A stretch of DNA of 64,000 nucleotides from Thermoplasmata archaeon (GTDB lineage: Archaea; Thermoplasmatota; Thermoplasmata; RBG-16-68-12; JAGMCJ01). Positions 1,303 through 21,934 of the stretch are shown one piece after another. The position numbers were made by a program, and so were the translations under genes. The stretch lies in the NCBI GenBank assembly GCA_046761045.1, contig JBHIFJ010000001.1, positions 89,785 to 153,784 on the forward strand, in the 5' to 3' direction. The notes under the pieces were generated by a model. That model did no database searches and was not told the origin of the DNA. It saw only the letters and a program-made list of their open reading frames with translations. Numbering within the stretch: position 1 is the stretch's first letter; the number at the start of each line of letters is the position of its first letter.

Positions 1303-4300
1303 ATGGGAAATCTCATGAGAATTGTTTCGAGAGAAAATAGGAATAAGGGCCTGCGCTCGATTGCCCTCATGGCGTTGCTCGTTCTTGGGAGCATTCTAAT
1401 CATGGTATCGCCACAGACAAGAGCTGAGCTGAACCCGCCCGTTCAGGTAGGTCCAGATACTTGGGTGGTAGCAGCAGGTGATTGGGTCATAGAGAATGGT
1501 GACAATATTGTCCACGGAAACAAGACGATATATGTTGAAGCTGGCAACGTCGTGATTGAGAACGGCGGGGCACTGACACTCTACAATGTCACCCTGCAGC
1601 TGAACTCCACTTTCAGCGGGGAGTTCCACATAGAGGTCCAGGATGGCGGAACATTCAGGGTCCTCGACGGTGGAGATGGATACACGCCTTTTGACATGGC
1701 CGACACCGATCAGTCCACACTGCTGGGCAGTCCTTTTGAATTCCAATTTTGGGTGCGAGGTTCGGCGGTCTTTGAGATGAACAATAGCGTCATCGCATTC
1801 ATGGGCGAGACACACCCGCCAGGTCCGCCTCTTCCGACCCTCGAGCCCTACGGACTCTACGTTGAATCCGATAATGTCGTCATCAGAAGGTCGGGAGTCA
1901 TATTCAGTGGCGGAATCATCGCCAACGGGTCAAGCCCTAGGATATACGACTCTGTGTTTGTCATGGGCTGGTTCGGTGTTGCCTCGTTCAACGCTGGAAA
2001 CCCGTACGCGTCGAATCTGTCGGCCAATTCCCTCGAGTATGCGGGTGTCCTTGTCGATGCCTCCTCGATTGAAATCTATGACAGCCGGATTGATTCGACT
2101 GGAGTTGGAGCATTCTTGATGCCCGGGGTCCAATTGGTCAACGGCTCGTATGCATTGGTTTCCAACGTCTCAGTCTCAAACAACGGCAACGGAGGATTGG
2201 TCGTGGAGAACTCACACATTGACCTCTTCGATTCCAGGGTCACAAACAACGGTCCCTGGGGCCTGATCATGCTCGAAGACCAGTACAACCTGTTCACTTC
2301 TGTCGTGCGCAACAACACGTTCAGCCAGCATCCCAATACCGAGATAGTCCTGGATGCCTTTGGAGACTCCGATGTGGTTATAGAACACAACAACATCACC
2401 GCCGATCCTGGGGCGACAGGCATCTGGCTCTCCACAGATAACAACCTGACCGCCTCGCTTGGTTGGAACAATATCACAAGTGGCGACCAGGGCATTGTCG
2501 CAATGGCACAGGAAAACGCCACACTGAACCTCACCGGGAACTGGTTCGAGGGCCTCGCCACACAGGGAGTGCAGACCATCAATTTCGGAGACTGGCAGGA
2601 CCTTGTGGTTTTCAATAACACGTTCTTCAATCTTGGAGGCTTCGGCGGTTCCCACCTCAATCCCGTCGGGGAGCTGTCTGCCGATGTGCAGAGCAATAGC
2701 ATAATCCTGACGGGGGATGCTGGAATCATACTTGGAGCCGAAACACTGGTCACTGCGAATATTGCCGATAACTACGTCATGGCGACTGGAATGACCCCTT
2801 CCATGGCCCCAGCGGGTTTGATCACCTCTTCCAACGGAGACGCTTCTGTCGGCTTCCATGATAACCAGTTCTTTGCCACCTCTGACACTGCCATAATGGC
2901 GCTGGCCACGCGGGACCTGGACATCAATCTCTCATCGAACGCGTGTCTTTGGTGCTCCTCTGGGCCGACCTTCAGTGCCACATCGTTCGTGGCGACCTCG
3001 GGAGGCAATATGAGCGCCAATGTGTACAACAACTCGATAGACCTCACTGGTGCCGGGAACGGTATGAACTTCACTGCCAGCGGACAGTGGGCGACTCTGG
3101 ATTTCGTCGAGAACACGATAACCAACTCTCCTGACAGCGGTATTTACGTCGACCTTCTCTCGCAGTCGGATATTCTGTTCGATTCCAACGATGTCAGCTA
3201 CAATGGTGGGGCCGGTGTCTATGTCACCGTTTCTAACTATGCGAATGTCGTGGCGAGGGACAATCAGTTCTCCAGGAACGCTGTCTACGGACTGGGGATC
3301 GTTGGCGGTGGTCCATTACCGGTGAACCTGACCTTGGAGGACAACTACTTCGTGGCAGACGATGTCATCGGTCTTTGGCTGACCGATATCAACATAAGTT
3401 CCAGGGGGAACTATGTCATCGCATGCAACAACTTCGGCGCTGCCCTATTCCAGGTGGCGGGAACCATGGAGGATGAGGAGTACTCTTTCAACTCCAACGG
3501 CATAATCTTTGATGCAGGTTCACAGGTCGACCTGATAAACTCAACGCTCGACAATGCTGGAGTGGACATCTTCATAGACGGGGACTCTCACATCACTACG
3601 CTGAACACGACATTCGATCGTCTCTTCGGTCTGTTTTTCGGGGATATGCTTTCAAGCATCACGGTGAATTGGTTCCTTCATGTCCGTGTGGAGACCCAAC
3701 AGGCTGTACCTCTCGTGGGGGCCACTGTTGATGTGGAGGACTTCTACCAGACGCCCGTTGCGAGCCGCACAACCGGAGCAGACGGAATGGTGAGATGGAT
3801 GGTCGTGACCGAGTTCCATCTAGAGGGCTTCATATGGACCTACTACACGCCGCACAATATTACCGCGACTCTTGCAGGATTCGGAAGTGGCGTGGCTCAA
3901 CCCAACATGGATGCGACCAAGACGGTGGTCATTCAGCTTGCCGATGTCGAACCCCCTATGGCAGTGGCAAATGACGTGACCGTTGATGAGGACACCCTCT
4001 TCAATCTCGACAGCACGGGCAGTGGCGACAATGTGGCGATAGTGAACTGGACATGGGTCGTGAGTGATATTGGCGGTGATGTCTATCTGTACGGTCCGAA
4101 CCCGTTCTATATGTTCTCGGAGCCCGGAAGCTATGGGGTCAATCTCACGGTGACGGACGCCGCCGGGCTCTCTGGCTGGGACACAGCCACGATTACTGTG
4201 AACGACATCACGGATCCCATTGCGGACGCCGGACCAGATCAGGCGGTGTTCTCTGGGGACCAGGTGTTCTTCGATGGAACGAATTCGACGGACAACGTGG

Positions 4301-5340
4301 GCGTGGTGAACTACACATGGACTTTCACATACGACGGAGGACCGATCAACTTGTGGGGAGCGGCACCAAACTTCACCTTCGTGACTCCTGGCATCTACGA
4401 TGTCACCCTTACTGCTCGCGATGCCGCCGGCAATACTGGATCCGATGCGGTCACCATTACCGTCGAGGACAATGAGGCTCCCGTGGCAGATGCGGGACCT
4501 GACCAACTGAACAATGACGAGGGAACCACGATTTACTTCGATGGAACCGCTTCCACGGACAATGTTGGTATCGTTACCTTCAAATGGGAGTTTGACTACG
4601 GACCCAACCACATAGTCCTCGAGGGAGCAACGCAATCCTTCGTCTTTGAGGCGATTGGTGAGTACACGGTCACCTTGAAAGTAACCGACGGTGTTGGCCT
4701 CTCCGATACAGACACGATGGTCGTGTCCATTGTGGATTCCACTCCGCCAGAAGTCGTCTCGACCTCGCCACCGAATGGGGTGACCGACGTATCAATTGCC
4801 ACGGACTGCGTCATCGTGTTCAGTGAAGCCATGGATACCGATTCGACCGAGATGGCGATATCCATAGAGGGCGCGACGATTAAGAGCTTTGACTGGTCCA
4901 ATGGCGATTCCGTGCTTACTCTAGATCTCTCGGGACTGGAAGAGGACAAGGAGTACACCGTCATAATTGCCGATAACGCCACGGACGTTGAGGGCAATGA
5001 GATCAATGATTATGTTCTGACATTCAGGACCCAACCTCCACCCGCCCTCTTCTCCATGGAGAATGATTGGTGGTGGATCATAATAGTCATCATCCTGATA
5101 GTCGTGATAGCCATACTCGCCCTGAGGAAGCCGAAGGCCCCTGCGCCAACACCACAAGTATATGAGCCTGTGGCGTATGAGCCATCACCGCCGGCCGAGT
5201 ATCCTCTAGATGAACCGGACGAAGCTCCACCAGAGGAGCCACCGGATATGCCAGAGGAAGCTCCGGAGGAAGTGCCCGAACCTCCCGAGGGACCCCCGGA
5301 GGAGGAAGCTCCAGAACCGCCAGAAGAACCCGAGGAATAG
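1303..5340 (+). CDS. Giant secreted/cell-surface protein: signal peptide, parallel beta-helix (NosD/pectate-lyase-like) repeats, 3-4 PKD domains, Ig-like domain, C-terminal TM helix and acidic Pro/Glu-rich cytoplasmic tail
   Basis: 1345 aa; N-term hydrophobic segment ALMALLVLGSILIMVSP; repeated N-x-(I/V) beta-helix turns; PKD signatures (VNYTWTF..GxYxVTLTxxDxxG); TM WWWIIIVIILIVVIAILAL then RKPK and PEEAPEEVPEPPEGPPEEEAPEPPEEPEE. Confidence 0.8.
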   Translation: MGNLMRIVSRENRNKGLRSIALMALLVLGSILIMVSPQTRAELNPPVQVGPDTWVVAAGDWVIENGDNIVHGNKTIYVEAGNVVIENGGALTLYNVTLQLNSTFSGEFHIEVQDGGTFRVLDGGDGYTPFDMADTDQSTLLGSPFEFQFWVRGSAVFEMNNSVIAFMGETHPPGPPLPTLEPYGLYVESDNVVIRRSGVIFSGGIIANGSSPRIYDSVFVMGWFGVASFNAGNPYASNLSANSLEYAGVLVDASSIEIYDSRIDSTGVGAFLMPGVQLVNGSYALVSNVSVSNNGNGGLVVENSHIDLFDSRVTNNGPWGLIMLEDQYNLFTSVVRNNTFSQHPNTEIVLDAFGDSDVVIEHNNITADPGATGIWLSTDNNLTASLGWNNITSGDQGIVAMAQENATLNLTGNWFEGLATQGVQTINFGDWQDLVVFNNTFFNLGGFGGSHLNPVGELSADVQSNSIILTGDAGIILGAETLVTANIADNYVMATGMTPSMAPAGLITSSNGDASVGFHDNQFFATSDTAIMALATRDLDINLSSNACLWCSSGPTFSATSFVATSGGNMSANVYNNSIDLTGAGNGMNFTASGQWATLDFVENTITNSPDSGIYVDLLSQSDILFDSNDVSYNGGAGVYVTVSNYANVVARDNQFSRNAVYGLGIVGGGPLPVNLTLEDNYFVADDVIGLWLTDINISSRGNYVIACNNFGAALFQVAGTMEDEEYSFNSNGIIFDAGSQVDLINSTLDNAGVDIFIDGDSHITTLNTTFDRLFGLFFGDMLSSITVNWFLHVRVETQQAVPLVGATVDVEDFYQTPVASRTTGADGMVRWMVVTEFHLEGFIWTYYTPHNITATLAGFGSGVAQPNMDATKTVVIQLADVEPPMAVANDVTVDEDTLFNLDSTGSGDNVAIVNWTWVVSDIGGDVYLYGPNPFYMFSEPGSYGVNLTVTDAAGLSGWDTATITVNDITDPIADAGPDQAVFSGDQVFFDGTNSTDNVGVVNYTWTFTYDGGPINLWGAAPNFTFVTPGIYDVTLTARDAAGNTGSDAVTITVEDNEAPVADAGPDQLNNDEGTTIYFDGTASTDNVGIVTFKWEFDYGPNHIVLEGATQSFVFEAIGEYTVTLKVTDGVGLSDTDTMVVSIVDSTPPEVVSTSPPNGVTDVSIATDCVIVFSEAMDTDSTEMAISIEGATIKSFDWSNGDSVLTLDLSGLEEDKEYTVIIADNATDVEGNEINDYVLTFRTQPPPALFSMENDWWWIIIVIILIVVIAILALRKPKAPAPTPQVYEPVAYEPSPPAEYPLDEPDEAPPEEPPDMPEEAPEEVPEPPEGPPEEEAPEPPEEPEE

Positions 5341-5612: not shown

Positions 5613-6880
5613 GGTGCCGTCCATAGATGCGTTTCCACCGTCTGCTGGGTCGCCCGCCATATGATCGAGAACTGATAGTCGTGACCGCTTGTCACGTTGA
5701 TCACGAATGAGTCTCCGACCGTGAAGAGACCGTCGGAATCCATGTCATAGAACGTGATATTTCCCGCGGTCGCGCCGTCTGCAAGAGGGTCCATCCTGTC
5801 GGTCTCGTTCAAGTCCGTGAGGAGGGAGGCTCCATACAGACCAAAGTCAACGGCTTCCGAGACGAAGAAGACAGTTATGCTGTATGTGCCTGGCCCCTGC
5901 GGCACGCCCGATATCGAAACCTCAGGGACGGATGATGTGGGCGTCCCCGATGCGGGGTTGGACTCCGGACCCTCGTTTCCCTGAGCATCCACAGCGCTTA
6001 CGGTGTAAGTGTACTCCTGCCCATTGCTCAGGCCAGTGTCAAGGAACCAAGTTGTCGCTGGCTCGTCCAGCAGCTTCAATCCATCCCTGTAGATATGGTA
6101 CTTAACCACGCCAATGTTGTCCGTCGCAGGAGACCATGTGAGGTTGAGTTTGCCATCCTTCTCATCCGTCACCATCAGTCCCGTCACCTTGGACGGGGGT
6201 TCCGAGTCGTATTCCGTGGGTGTCCCTGTTGCGGGAACAGACCTCTGGCCTTCGTTTCCTGAGGTGTCGACAGCGCTCACTTCATATGTGTAGTTCCGGT
6301 AATTGGTGAGCCCTGAATCGACAAAGTATGTGTTCACGGGCTCCTGATCGAGCCTCACACCGTCCCTGTAGACATTGTAGTGCGAGATGCCAACATTGTC
6401 GAATGCCGGGTTCCAGGTCAGATTCAGCTTCCCATTGTGGACATTCATAACTTCGAGCCCATCGACCCTGCCTGGAGGGACATTGTCCGAGGGTGTCGGG
6501 GTGCCCCAAGCAGAATTCGACTTCTCGCCCTCGTTGCCAGAGCTGTCCACTGCCCTTACCTGATAGACGTATGAGACCCAGTTGACCAGTGAAGCGTCAA
6601 CGAAGAAGGGGTAGGAGGGCTCCGTGGGCAGCATGTTGCCATCCCTGAATACCTGGTATCTGTCCACCTTCCGATTATCAGTGGCCTCGTCCCAGAATAG
6701 AAAGAGCTTGCCATCGTGCATGTCGTACACCTCGAGACCCTCCACCTTGCTCGGTGGGGTGGTATCCTCTGGAAGTTCGAGGTGGAGGACATACAACATC
6801 GTGGAAACGATTATCGCGGCCACTACAATGATGACGAAGAACGCGATGTATCTATGCCTCGTGCTTCTGTCCTCCTCCAT
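5609..6880 (-). CDS. Membrane-anchored (N-terminal TM) protein with three to four fibronectin type III domains
   Basis: 423 aa; TM YIAFFVIIVVAAIIVSTMLYVL; repeated PPSKVxGLxVxDxxDGKLxLxWxxAxDNxxVxxYxxYRDG FN3 signatures. Confidence 0.75.
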   Translation of the reverse strand: MEEDRSTRHRYIAFFVIIVVAAIIVSTMLYVLHLELPEDTTPPSKVEGLEVYDMHDGKLFLFWDEATDNRKVDRYQVFRDGNMLPTEPSYPFFVDASLVNWVSYVYQVRAVDSSGNEGEKSNSAWGTPTPSDNVPPGRVDGLEVMNVHNGKLNLTWNPAFDNVGISHYNVYRDGVRLDQEPVNTYFVDSGLTNYRNYTYEVSAVDTSGNEGQRSVPATGTPTEYDSEPPSKVTGLMVTDEKDGKLNLTWSPATDNIGVVKYHIYRDGLKLLDEPATTWFLDTGLSNGQEYTYTVSAVDAQGNEGPESNPASGTPTSSVPEVSISGVPQGPGTYSITVFFVSEAVDFGLYGASLLTDLNETDRMDPLADGATAGNITFYDMDSDGLFTVGDSFVINVTSGHDYQFSIIWRATQQTVETHLWTAP

Positions 6881-7731
6881 GCTATCGTGTCTTCATCGTG
6901 TCTCTGCTCTAAAATGCTTTCCACGCTTCGCCAAAGGCACTTCCCTGAGACTATGCACAGAATTCTCGAGTAGTGGGCAAGACCGATTCTTTCTACGTCG
7001 CTGCCAAATTCGTCCCAGACCTCCTTGAAGCCGCGCGTCTTCACGCCGTAGTCGCGAAAGACCTCCGGCGTCCTCTCGCACGCGAAGCGGATTTCCTCCT
7101 TTGCCTGTTCCGCAATGAGCTTCTTGCCCGTGACAAACAGAATCTCCTCAACGATTTCCAGTCCGTTCCGTCTCAGCTGCTCTCTGAAGAAATCTGGCGG
7201 CGGGAAGACAGCGCCGTGACCTATGAATTGTTCGACTTCTCTTAGCAGCACTTCCTCGGGCTCGTCGCCGTACACGCCTATCGCAATCTGAACGAACCCT
7301 CCTGAACGGACCACTCTTGCCATCTCCCGAATGGCGCGCATGAGCCCCTCTTCGCCACGGGTCATTCGAATGTCTTCCAGCCCGAGAAAGTTCACGACGA
7401 AATCGAAGCGGTTGTCCTCGAACTCAAGCCTCGTCGCATCCATTTCGAGGTAGTAGATCTTTTCACTGAATCTGCCCTCAGGGACCTGTGTGCGGTACCA
7501 CTTGTAGTCACGCAAGTCGTTCGCCAGGCCTATAGCAATGACCTCTCCCTCGGGAACCGCCTCCGCGATCTTCAAGGCGAGGGTTCCATGTCCTGCCGCA
7601 ACATCCAAGACCCTTGATTCCCGCCCGAGCCCCTTGGACCTGAGCACCCTTATGACCTCGTCTCGTGCACCTGCGAGGTCAAAGAACCATCCCTCGTATT
7701 CCTCATCCTTCAGAAAGGTGTTCATCTTCAT
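6823..7731 (-). CDS. Class I SAM-dependent methyltransferase
   Basis: Motif I VLDVAAGHGTLALKIAE, acidic motif II region; ORF-track N-terminal extension (to 7896) rejected as it has non-protein-like composition; start placed at ATG 7731. Confidence 0.7.
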   Translation of the reverse strand: MKMNTFLKDEEYEGWFFDLAGARDEVIRVLRSKGLGRESRVLDVAAGHGTLALKIAEAVPEGEVIAIGLANDLRDYKWYRTQVPEGRFSEKIYYLEMDATRLEFEDNRFDFVVNFLGLEDIRMTRGEEGLMRAIREMARVVRSGGFVQIAIGVYGDEPEEVLLREVEQFIGHGAVFPPPDFFREQLRRNGLEIVEEILFVTGKKLIAEQAKEEIRFACERTPEVFRDYGVKTRGFKEVWDEFGSDVERIGLAHYSRILCIVSGKCLWRSVESILEQRHDEDTIAWRRTEARGIDTSRSSSSL

Positions 7732-10414: not shown

Positions 10415-11440
10415 CTACAAGAGCGAGTCCAGGTCTGTTCCGCAAAGCCTGCTCAGCTCGTCGTGCAGCCGCCTCATCCGCCTTGCCGCAGCGAGGAGTC
10501 CCCTCCTCTTCAATTGACTCACAAGCGCGTCAATCTCGCCCTCCTCCACAAGGTTGTCGGCGTGCGAAACGACCTTCTGTTCAAGCGTTCGGGGAATATA
10601 GCTCCTCACGGGCAGGCCGAGTCTTCTCGCCTCATCCCTGGCGATGCCCGCCCCTACATGCCTCTCCGCTATCTCGACTAGGACCTCTGGGAATCCTCTC
10701 TCCCTGAGGATATGGGCTCCCACCACACCGTGGTCTATGCCGTGAGTTCTACCCCGACCGATGTCATGGAGTAGGCCGCCCAAGGCGCAGACCTCCTCAT
10801 CAGCACCACAGAACCCGGCAATCTTCCTCGCCAGCCTCGACACCCTCTTGCAGTGAATAACCACGCCCCCGTCGCATCCTGCTTCCTGGAGCGCCCTCAG
10901 GCACGCTTTGCGAGAGGGGAGGTCCTCGGATCTATCGATGACCATCTTGCCGCGTTTGGAGGGGACTATCCTCATCCTTCCTTTGAAGTCCACCTCCAGC
11001 GGCTTTCCGCCGAGAAGCCTGTCCAGGAACACCGCCAACGCGGCGACCTCGGAATGAGGCTGGTTGCCCACCGAGACGTTGAAGTCTGCGAGGTCGTAGA
11101 CCTCGGCAGGGACCTTCTCCCCTCCAATCACGATGAGCAGGTCCTCCTCGCCGATTTTCGGAACCGCATCCTTCAGCCTCTCCCCATACATTGTGAGATG
11201 GACGATGGTGCCCTTCCATTCCTTCAGCGTCTTCCTCCAGTTGACTCCCGTGGAGACGTGGAACTCACCGCCAAATTTCCGTACAACATTCCTGACGCTA
11301 TTCTCCAGTGCCGTGTCCCTTGTGGAGACCATCATGCAGTCCGCGCCGAAGGCCCTGGCGACAAGCGCGACATGGGTGGTGATCCTGCGGTCTCTTGGAA
11401 TCCTGTGACCCAGCCTGAGAACGGAAATCATTCTTCCCAC
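10415..11440 (-). CDS. trm56: tRNA (cytidine56-2'-O)-methyltransferase Trm56 (SPOUT) fused to C-terminal HD phosphohydrolase domain
   Basis: N-term ISVLRLGHRIPRDRRITTHVALVARAFGA typical of aTrm56; C-term LHDIGR...H..D HD-domain motifs. Confidence 0.7.
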   Translation of the reverse strand: MGRMISVLRLGHRIPRDRRITTHVALVARAFGADCMMVSTRDTALENSVRNVVRKFGGEFHVSTGVNWRKTLKEWKGTIVHLTMYGERLKDAVPKIGEEDLLIVIGGEKVPAEVYDLADFNVSVGNQPHSEVAALAVFLDRLLGGKPLEVDFKGRMRIVPSKRGKMVIDRSEDLPSRKACLRALQEAGCDGGVVIHCKRVSRLARKIAGFCGADEEVCALGGLLHDIGRGRTHGIDHGVVGAHILRERGFPEVLVEIAERHVGAGIARDEARRLGLPVRSYIPRTLEQKVVSHADNLVEEGEIDALVSQLKRRGLLAAARRMRRLHDELSRLCGTDLDSLL

Positions 11441-11937
11441 ATCATAGAATAGAGAAACAGGGCGACGCTTGCATTGGTTAGTATCATGATTATGAAGACA
11501 GGAAACGCCTTCAGTATGTCGCTTCGGAAGGTCAACGCCGTTGCTATGATGAGAAGCACAAGGGTCCCGAGGAAGATTCCCGCCAGAAAGTGGGCCCCCC
11601 TCTCTGTCATGGATTTCGGCCTTATCGTCAAGTCGTCAAGCAAGTAGAAGAGGGCGACGAGAGCGGAGACGACCAATGCGGCCAAGGAGAGGATGAACTG
11701 AGTTGTCTCCCAGACCTGGATGACGAAGAAGTAGAAGAAAATCGCTAGGCCCACGAAACCTATCCCTGAGACCAACGCCAGCTTGCTCCTGTCGAACTCG
11801 TCCGCAAGTATCGGTATGTCCTCGAGATTCTCGATCTCTTCGACGGAGGAGGGCACGTTTTCGAATGGATTCTCCTCGAATGATGGCTCATCCTGAATGG
11901 GCCGATTCTCGAATGGATTCTCGGAATCACCCTTCAT
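11428..11937 (-). CDS. Membrane protein with acidic repetitive N-terminus (ENPFEN repeats)
   Basis: 169 aa; 4 TM helices after acidic N-term region. Confidence 0.55.
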   Translation of the reverse strand: MKGDSENPFENRPIQDEPSFEENPFENVPSSVEEIENLEDIPILADEFDRSKLALVSGIGFVGLAIFFYFFVIQVWETTQFILSLAALVVSALVALFYLLDDLTIRPKSMTERGAHFLAGIFLGTLVLLIIATALTFRSDILKAFPVFIIMILTNASVALFLYSMMWEE

Positions 11938-11948
11938 ACGAGGTGCTC

Positions 11949-12437
11949 CTACAGCTTTCTTATGCGATGACCCTTGTACTCCAACTTGGCGGACCTCTTA
12001 ATCAGGCCCTTGAGCATCGTCTGCGAGACACCCAGGTCGTCAGCGATGTCTCCCGAGAACTTCCCCTCTTTGTCAACCTCTTTCAGTATCTTCTCCTCGA
12101 TCTTGCGATACTCATTCTCAGGCATCACAACGGCTGCGAGGATGTCGCACATCTCGTTCACCGGCGATGAAGCGTTTATGTGAAATGACGTGTAGAAGGC
12201 ATGATAGGCCTTCTCGGGTTCGGACTCACCCGTCTGCCACTTGGTCTCCACCAGGTTCATCTTCTCGAAGAACTTGAGAGCCTCCAGGCCTTCCTCTCCA
12301 AACTTGTCCTCGATCTCCCGTGCGGTCCGCCAGTTCTCGGATACATCCTTCAAAACTTCTCTCTTGACCTCTTTGTCCACAGCCATGAGGATCGGAACAA
12401 GCTCTGCTGGCTCGTTCACAAATTTGATTCTATTCAT
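11949..12437 (-). CDS. Putative HTH transcriptional regulator
   Basis: C-terminal helix-turn-helix-like FSGDIADDLGVSQTMLKGLIKRS; start moved to internal ATG 12437 (MNRIKF) with AT-rich upstream. Confidence 0.5.
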   Translation of the reverse strand: MNRIKFVNEPAELVPILMAVDKEVKREVLKDVSENWRTAREIEDKFGEEGLEALKFFEKMNLVETKWQTGESEPEKAYHAFYTSFHINASSPVNEMCDILAAVVMPENEYRKIEEKILKEVDKEGKFSGDIADDLGVSQTMLKGLIKRSAKLEYKGHRIRKL

Positions 12438-17386: not shown

Positions 17387-17475
17387 GCCGCCGTAGCTTA
17401 GTCTGGTGGAGCTCCCGGCTGTTAATCGCCGAAGCAGAAACCGGAGGGTCACCGGTTCAAATCCGGTCGGCGGCG
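17387..17475 (+). tRNA. tRNA-Asn (anticodon GUU) with 15-nt intron (17425-17439) at canonical 37/38 position
   Basis: Manual fold: acceptor GCCGCCG/CGGCGGC, D-arm GCTT..GGAGC, anticodon stem CCCGG/CCGGA, loop CU-GUU-A, T-arm ACCGG-TTCAAAT-CCGGT; intron ATCGCCGAAGCAGAA. Confidence 0.8.
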
Positions 17476-17480
17476 CTCTC

Positions 17481-21860: not shown

Positions 21861-21934
21861 GGGCCCGTAGCTTAGCCTGGTGGAGCATCTGGCTCATAAC
21901 CAGAGGGTCGTCGGTTCAAATCCGGCCGGGCCCA
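21861..21934 (+). tRNA. tRNA-Met (anticodon CAU); could equally be tRNA-Ile2 (CAU, agmatidine)
   Basis: Manual fold: acceptor GGGCCCG/CGGGCCC, anticodon stem TCTGG/CCAGA, loop CU-CAU-AA, T-loop TTCAAAT; G1:C72 so not initiator. Confidence 0.85.

Follow-up and report, generated by a model that had tools for sequence, protein, structure and literature searches.

Trm56-HD proteins and the window gene

The joining of the tRNA methyltransferase Trm56 to an HD domain in a single polypeptide is known from the Thermoplasmatales, and here we describe a gene of this kind, trm56-HD, in a 64,000-nucleotide stretch of contig JBHIFJ010000001.1 of a Thermoplasmata archaeon (the whole stretch is called the window below). 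A 2017 review that covers the Trm56-HD fusion credits its prediction in the Thermoplasma acidophilum protein Ta0931 to Tkaczuk et al. 2007 (PMC5372735), and a 2022 review of SPOUT enzymes in the Journal of Biological Chemistry restates the fusion (PMC9508554). Kawamura et al. 2014, working with purified full-length Ta0931, found that it forms 2'-O-methylcytidine at tRNA position 56 (Cm56) in vitro, that it prefers mature tRNA over an intron-containing precursor, and that activity of this type falls below detection in soluble cell extracts (PMC4307237). Two Protein Data Bank (PDB) entries, 8x6k and 9u46, hold a 151-residue Trm56 chain that starts with MITVLRINH, as does the Ta0931 cloning primer. 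Given this length and this matching start, the entries appear to represent the T. acidophilum SPOUT half alone.

The Trm56-HD fusion is therefore already described and curated. The novelty implied for the fusion by a first-pass annotation of the window does not hold, as the arrangement is standard in the Thermoplasmatales and in several other Thermoplasmatota lineages, has been published, and has its own NCBI model, NF009343. The fusion itself adds little: this architecture has been on record since 2007, a fused orthologue has proven methyltransferase activity, and the exact window protein is already annotated at NCBI as tRNA (cytidine(56)-2'-O)-methyltransferase. What value remains lies in the C-terminal half, a probable member of the widespread archaeal family TIGR00295. 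The catalytic positions of this family are conserved, and its links to trm56 persist in the form of fusions, of gene overlaps, or of a trm56-tfe-HD-DUF2110 string; once it is linked to Cgi121. Knowing the substrate of TIGR00295 would supply a missing piece of archaeal nucleotide or tRNA metabolism, and would explain why the family is welded to Trm56 in Thermoplasmata. Our contribution is a comparative picture of fused, split and interrupted loci, together with an anatomy of the HD half.

A methyltransferase and an HD domain in one reading frame

We consider it highly probable that the window gene encodes a Thermoplasmata-type Trm56-HD protein, the product of a read-through gene pair, in which a predicted active HD enzyme stands beside the methyltransferase. 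The gene is a single uninterrupted open reading frame (ORF) on the minus strand, a strand that the first-pass annotation had left unstated, and it gives 341 amino acids (aa) when read from a GTG codon (10415..11440). Residues 4-339 of this protein align to positions 1-337 of NF009343/PRK12703, the 339-position model of the fused protein, at E 8e-120 and 399.8 bits, below the 434-bit equivalog cutoff. Its closest known counterpart is Ta0931, a long Trm56 with a C-terminal 'HDPD-like' domain, which the window protein resembles in its two domains and in its similar length. The lineage of the window protein is another one within Thermoplasmata, and uncultured. Over its whole length the protein is 47.5% identical to the Picrophilus orthologue; judged by its sequence, it is the NF009343 architecture from a more distant lineage.

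The ATG at 11431 is a likelier start than the GTG at 11440, because it shares bases with the TGA stop of the preceding ORF, as ATGA, and because the identical NCBI protein is 338 aa long (P0001, 100% identity, from a 'Thermoplasmata archaeon' metagenome-assembled genome, MAG). Residue numbers below follow this 338-aa form, which is made up of a SPOUT half of ~166 aa, a linker of 7 aa, and an HD half of 165 aa (Table 1). No further copy of either half was found elsewhere in the window.

Table 1. Features of the trm56-HD gene and its upstream neighbours, in window coordinates
Feature	Position	Strand	Basis or remark
Complete trm56-HD fusion gene	10415..11431	-	ATG start, 338 aa + stop; alternative GTG start at 11440
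ATGA overlap of trm56-HD ATG start with TGA stop of upstream ORF	11428..11431	-	DNA read directly
Trm56 SPOUT methyltransferase half, aa 1-166	10934..11431	-	PF01994, NF003048, PDB matches, invariant residues
Inter-domain linker, aa 167-173, DRSEDLP	10913..10933	-	Model confidence; junction comparison
TIGR00295-type HDIG phosphohydrolase half, aa 174-338	10418..10912	-	
His193 codon, first HD-superfamily metal ligand	10853..10855	-	Invariant; aligned to first ligand His of PgpH and YqeK
His222-Asp223 codons, HD dyad in LLHDIGR	10763..10768	-	Invariant; aligned to HD of PgpH, YqeK, Bd1817, 2pq7
His234 codon, putative second-metal ligand	10730..10732	-	Invariant; aligned to 'SH' His of PgpH, 'WH' His of YqeK
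His258 codon (ERHVGAG)	10658..10660	-	Invariant; aligned to 'QHH' of PgpH, 'IEIH' of YqeK
Asp292 codon (HADNL), terminal HD-superfamily Asp	10556..10558	-	Invariant
Upstream 169-aa predicted membrane protein, between PF09824 gene and trm56	11428..11937	-	ORF; weak DUF2157 match; stop overlaps trm56 start
PF09824 ('ArsR'-type winged helix-turn-helix) gene	11949..12437	-	PF09824 E 5.4e-54

The first-pass annotation had taken the N-terminal ~170 aa for an archaeal Trm56 (aTrm56), and Pfam and NCBIfam scans bear this out for the SPOUT half of ~166 aa, which matches PF01994 at E 2.6e-45 (153.6 bits, cutoff 25) and NF003048 at 236.9 bits (cutoff 223). This half also matches the aTrm56 structures 2yy8 (E 9e-56) and 2o3a (E 3e-50) and the T. 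acidophilum entry 8x6k, the three lying within E 1e-50 to 1e-56. Alignment to their residues recovers the catalytic Arg16 and the S-adenosylmethionine (SAM)-binding loops LTMYG, GxEKVP and NQPHSEVAAL, and no variation is seen among 24 homologues at R16, L79-G83, K106, P108 or N123-E128. With residues 1-151 of Ta0931 the SPOUT half shares 54% identity, and from this similarity to a biochemically proven enzyme we infer Cm56 activity for the window protein: its N-terminal domain would use SAM to methylate the 2'-OH of tRNA C56. The stand-alone aTrm56 proteins of Pyrococcus horikoshii (PH0461, 2yy8), Archaeoglobus fulgidus (AF0751, 2o3a) and Pyrococcus abyssi (PAB1040) belong to the same SPOUT fold family, with the same Arg16 and SAM-binding loops, but are only 178-201 aa long and have no HD domain. 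Stand-alone Trm56 is indeed the norm for archaea in general, as had been supposed, and the NF003048 model itself has 178 positions.

In a full-length AlphaFold2 model both domains are well folded (mean predicted local distance difference test, pLDDT, 90.8), but the predicted template modelling score (pTM) is 0.60 and the orientation of one domain to the other is not confident. The linker residues 167-173 have no secondary structure, and pLDDT drops to 67-82 over approximately aa 150-172. The model fits two complete modules on a short flexible tether with no predicted interface between them, and at this pTM it gives no evidence for a fixed inter-domain interface of the kind that would favour mechanistic coupling. 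The long Thermoplasmata-type Trm56 would then be one polypeptide with two complete enzymes, in which the HD half may work beside the methyltransferase with no mechanistic link between the two.

The HD half carries a predicted binuclear metal site

The C-terminal ~160 aa had been read as an HD domain, and the whole of this 165-aa half matches accordingly: PF01966 at E 1.9e-16 (60.8 bits, cutoff 22) and the HDIG domain model TIGR00277 at 70.8 bits (cutoff 27.6). It aligns to positions 2-163 of the 164 in TIGR00295 (E 6.4e-44) at 149.6 bits, below the cutoff of 172.35, a value that a free Bathyarchaeia homologue (at locus L023) exceeds at 173.3 bits, and its closest free relatives are labelled TIGR00295 in several sources. 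These free HDIG proteins are up to ~50% identical to the window HD half and share its N-terminal helix and its invariant residues, whereas the window HD is joined covalently to Trm56. With only the HD half as query, an exhaustive HMMER search returned 847 relatives at E <= 1e-3, many of them complete, Met-initiated proteins of 165-195 aa that begin with this same helix.

The H..HDIGR..H..D signature reported in the first-pass annotation is present as H193, H222-D223-I-G-R226, H234, H258 and D292, and none of these positions varies in 24-36 homologues. Sequence and profile alignments set H193, H222-D223, H234 and H258 against the matching His and Asp residues of PgpH, YqeK and Bd1817, which gives the ligand pattern of binuclear HD phosphodiesterases. 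H234 and H258 are two extra histidines between the HD dyad and the terminal aspartate, a feature of the binuclear type, and both are invariant. On the evidence of these alignments, the HD half is predicted to have all six ligands (H, HD, H, H, D) of a binuclear metal site. Since the ligand residues are invariant in fused and free forms alike, this half is predicted to be an active enzyme and no degenerate binding module, namely a binuclear metal phosphodiesterase or phosphohydrolase. Modelled alone, it folds with a mean pLDDT of 97.4 and a pTM of 0.92, and its nearest folds are PgpH, YqeK and HD-GYP.

The likeness to these three enzymes has clear bounds. Identity of the HD half to PgpH (c-di-AMP, 4s1b), YqeK (Ap4A, 2o08/8wmy/8jja) and HD-GYP proteins (c-di-GMP, 3tm8/4mcw) is only 18-26%, and sequence matches found with the family profile are partial, at E 1e-4 to 3e-6. 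The window protein has neither the seven-transmembrane domain of PgpH nor the YqeK signature, and the GYP motif of HD-GYP c-di-GMP phosphodiesterases was not found in it. The YqeK equivalog model TIGR00488 gave no match; phmmer aligned only part of the sequence to 8jja (E 1.8e-4), and the likeness to YqeK is one of fold. Membership of the HD half in the YqeK, PgpH or HD-GYP families was rejected, as only the fold and the ligand pattern are in common.

Fusion as the read-through state of a gene pair

We surveyed genomes, a single one for each species, with a profile of the HD alone that was built on an 8-sequence alignment, and took the best 80 of more than 532 loci. They were classified by tblastn with each half of the window protein and by inspection of the junctions. 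The two halves are fused in one frame at 11 loci, which include a Thermoplasmataceae MAG and L001, a close relative of the window. They are split but adjacent at ~43 loci, mostly from Thermoplasmatota and Methanomassiliicoccales, where trm56 is the co-directional gene immediately before HD and the two genes overlap by 1-47 nt (often as ATGA or GTGA) or are parted by gaps of 2-17 nt. At ~20 loci of Bathyarchaeia type an interval of 350-830 nt, mostly 540-620 nt, separates trm56 from HD, and holds one gene wherever it was inspected. One locus has the two genes 3 kb apart (L025), and the remaining five have no trm56 in the flank, two of these five ending at a contig edge.

In the Bathyarchaeia loci inspected, the intervening gene encodes TFE (PF02002, TFIIE_alpha), and the whole forms a co-directional string, hflX - trm56 - tfe - TIGR00295 HD - DUF2110, in which the HD start overlaps the tfe end. 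This string is seen at L023 (3591-7286), and also at L030, L033, L043, L061, L067, L069, L070 and L072.

The window linker (..GKMVIDRSEDLPSRKACL..) corresponds to the stop/start junction of split pairs, for example one in which ..KKVVEIE and a stop codon are followed by MTETTPSREEC... Because of this correspondence, the fusion is best described, from comparison of the sequences, as the read-through form of a conserved trm56 -> HD pair, two co-directional genes that usually overlap. In a rough, unsupported neighbour-joining tree of the HD halves, fused forms fall into at least 3 or 4 groups that are interleaved with split forms, and this interleaving suggests repeated fusion or fission of trm56 and HD. 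On the same tree the window HD half falls outside the fused clade of Thermoplasmatales, so the window fusion may have arisen independently.

The split junctions have a peculiarity of their own. At 22 of the 43 split loci, the only possible HD start is a TTG within the conserved 'GK-x-VV' codons of trm56 (G-TTG-T), and these TTG codons lie 17-47 nt upstream of the trm56 stop. At 30 of the 43, HD is read in the +1 frame with respect to trm56. Such TTG and frame junctions occur at loci from L004 to L077 (e.g., L035 at 5992-6011, L029, L039, L042, L048, L064, L071 and L077), and the likeliest explanation is that split pairs with a TTG are TTG-initiated, translationally coupled genes. A sub-variant of the tRNA-directed role taken up below is that 'split' lineages with a TTG-only HD start may make some fused protein by +1 frameshifting.

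Two of the surveyed loci carry bacterial names, 'Faecalibacterium sp. CAG:74' (L059) and 'Firmicutes bacterium CAG:194' (L073), and an archaeal trm56-HD pair lies on both. They group with the Methanomethylophilaceae loci L056 and L076 on the HD tree, and we therefore judge them to be probably mis-binned or mislabelled contigs.

What the HD half may act on

In the literature we found no publication that gives an activity to the Trm56-fused HD half or to the TIGR00295 family, and Trm56 papers from 2023 onward add nothing on this half. We tentatively favour, with slightly less than even confidence, a small nucleotide-type phosphodiester or phosphoanhydride as its substrate: for instance a dinucleoside polyphosphate (NpnN) such as Ap4A, a dinucleotide in linear or cyclic form, or a nucleotide with a 2',3'-cyclic phosphate. 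The HD half would hydrolyse such a substrate in the manner of YqeK, PgpH and HD-GYP enzymes. We favour this by analogy, because its nearest folds and several of the family's non-tRNA fusion partners are of that kind, because it is a small module without an RNA-binding domain, and because it is merely tethered to Trm56.

The family also has partners beyond trm56. A TIGR00295-type HD stands N-terminal to Cgi121, a subunit of KEOPS, in 8 sequence clusters from the Candidatus Syntrophoarchaeum lineage, Ca. Syntrophoarchaeum butanivorans included (P0159 and P0270-P0276; 317-335 aa, 64-100% identity). In Methanobrevibacter, a gene with DUF5591, TGT_C2 and PUA domains, an archaeosine synthase of ArcS type, lies ~170-190 nt downstream of a free HD (L051 at 5959-7584, L060 at 3582-5160), and neither locus has trm56 in the flank of that HD. 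DUF2110 occurs both as a fused partner of the HD family and as an adjacent gene, and we found no PDB, NCBIfam or literature information on it, hence no clue from it to an RNA or a nucleotide substrate. The HD family is linked repeatedly, but not exclusively, to tRNA-modification genes, and is tied about as tightly to basal transcription factors and DUF2110. Apparent fusions of the HD to TFIIB (N-terminal), to a flavin reductase and to YjeF_N were each seen in a single cluster (P0176, P0177 and P0250).

An alternative that we regard as unlikely, though it is the strongest competitor, is that the HD half acts on tRNA or other RNA. It might, for instance, open or remove ends that bear a 2',3'-cyclic phosphate or a 3'-phosphate, an activity of the HD domain in bacterial CCA-adding enzymes, or serve as an RNase-Y-like nuclease. 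The fusion would then couple tRNA end-processing or quality control physically to Cm56 formation. The first-pass annotation had named both coupled tRNA processing and nucleotide hydrolysis, and these are the two leading candidate roles of the HD half. The links to Trm56, Cgi121 and ArcS speak for the tRNA or RNA alternative, as does the existence of tRNA-handling HD domains. However, the module is only ~170 aa long and has no recognisable RNA-binding domain, its closest structural neighbours are small-nucleotide phosphodiesterases, and an inter-domain interface is not confidently predicted. The ArcS adjacency is confined to one genus and the Cgi121 fusion to one lineage. The links to tfe, TFB and DUF2110 are equally tight, so the neighbourhood may be a mere housekeeping gene string. 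The HD of bacterial class II CCA-adding enzymes, like that of GlyRS-beta, differs from the window HD in its partner domains and in its HD subfamily.

A broader and still more doubtful form of this idea is that the TIGR00295-type HD is a widespread archaeal phosphodiesterase of tRNA itself, acting, for example, in 2',3'-cyclic or 3'-phosphate end healing or in quality-control cleavage, and recruited through fusion or co-translation with Trm56, Cgi121 and possibly ArcS. If this were true, the window protein would be a bifunctional tRNA maturation enzyme.

We think it very improbable that the HD half lacks catalysis and is an accessory module that binds tRNA or helps in oligomerisation or the formation of a complex, comparable to HDOD domains or to the degenerate HD of GlyRS-beta. 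The GlyRS-beta HD domain is understood as non-catalytic, whereas the window HD half retains every metal ligand. In 34-36 diverged sequences, both fused and free, neither the six ligands nor the G-R that follows the HD dyad varies, a pattern expected of an active site. Stand-alone Trm56 enzymes, moreover, function without an HD partner, and what appears to be a T. acidophilum Trm56 1-151 construct, without its HD, was crystallised (8x6k/9u46).

Next to no weight can be given to an artefact of assembly or sequencing, or to a pseudo-fusion that recently joined two adjacent genes. In most related genomes the halves are separate and overlap by a few bases, where one indel could join them, but the identical protein is present on 4 contigs, which come from NCBI and Logan assemblies. 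All relatives with 69-77% identity, found in ENA, JGI, NCBI and Logan, have the two halves joined as well (336-339 aa, save one 315-aa sequence at 92% coverage). The fusion occurs in cultured Picrophilus and Thermoplasma, Ta0931 was purified at full length, and catalytic positions are conserved in both halves. The best 120 database relatives all have both Pfam domains, cultured Picrophilus oshimae among them. The first-pass annotation had itself raised the prospects of a failed HD scan and of a frameshift joining two genes; the scan confirms the HD domain and the frame runs on without a frameshift, and we rejected the artefact on the continuous frame, the identical contigs, the fused relatives and the conserved catalytic residues.

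Neighbouring genes

The genes around trm56-HD in the window encode membrane proteins, a PF09824 winged helix-turn-helix protein, a PRC-barrel protein, a ParB_N domain protein and a methyltransferase, and no tRNA-related gene was seen among these neighbours. The PF09824 gene is the usual upstream neighbour of trm56 within Thermoplasmatota. It is co-directional and in the same ORF cluster as trm56 at 37 of 81 loci, directly upstream in the examples inspected, and it abuts trm56 directly in most related genomes. In the window the predicted membrane protein gene lies between the two (Table 1), and the close relative L001 has a comparable gap of ~500 nt between its PF09824 gene and trm56.

Farther along the window, ARAGORN places a tRNA-Asn(GTT) at 17387..17476 on the plus strand. 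As its 90 nt exceed the standard tRNA length, it may contain an archaeal intron. A tRNA-Met of normal length was placed by ARAGORN at 21861..21934.
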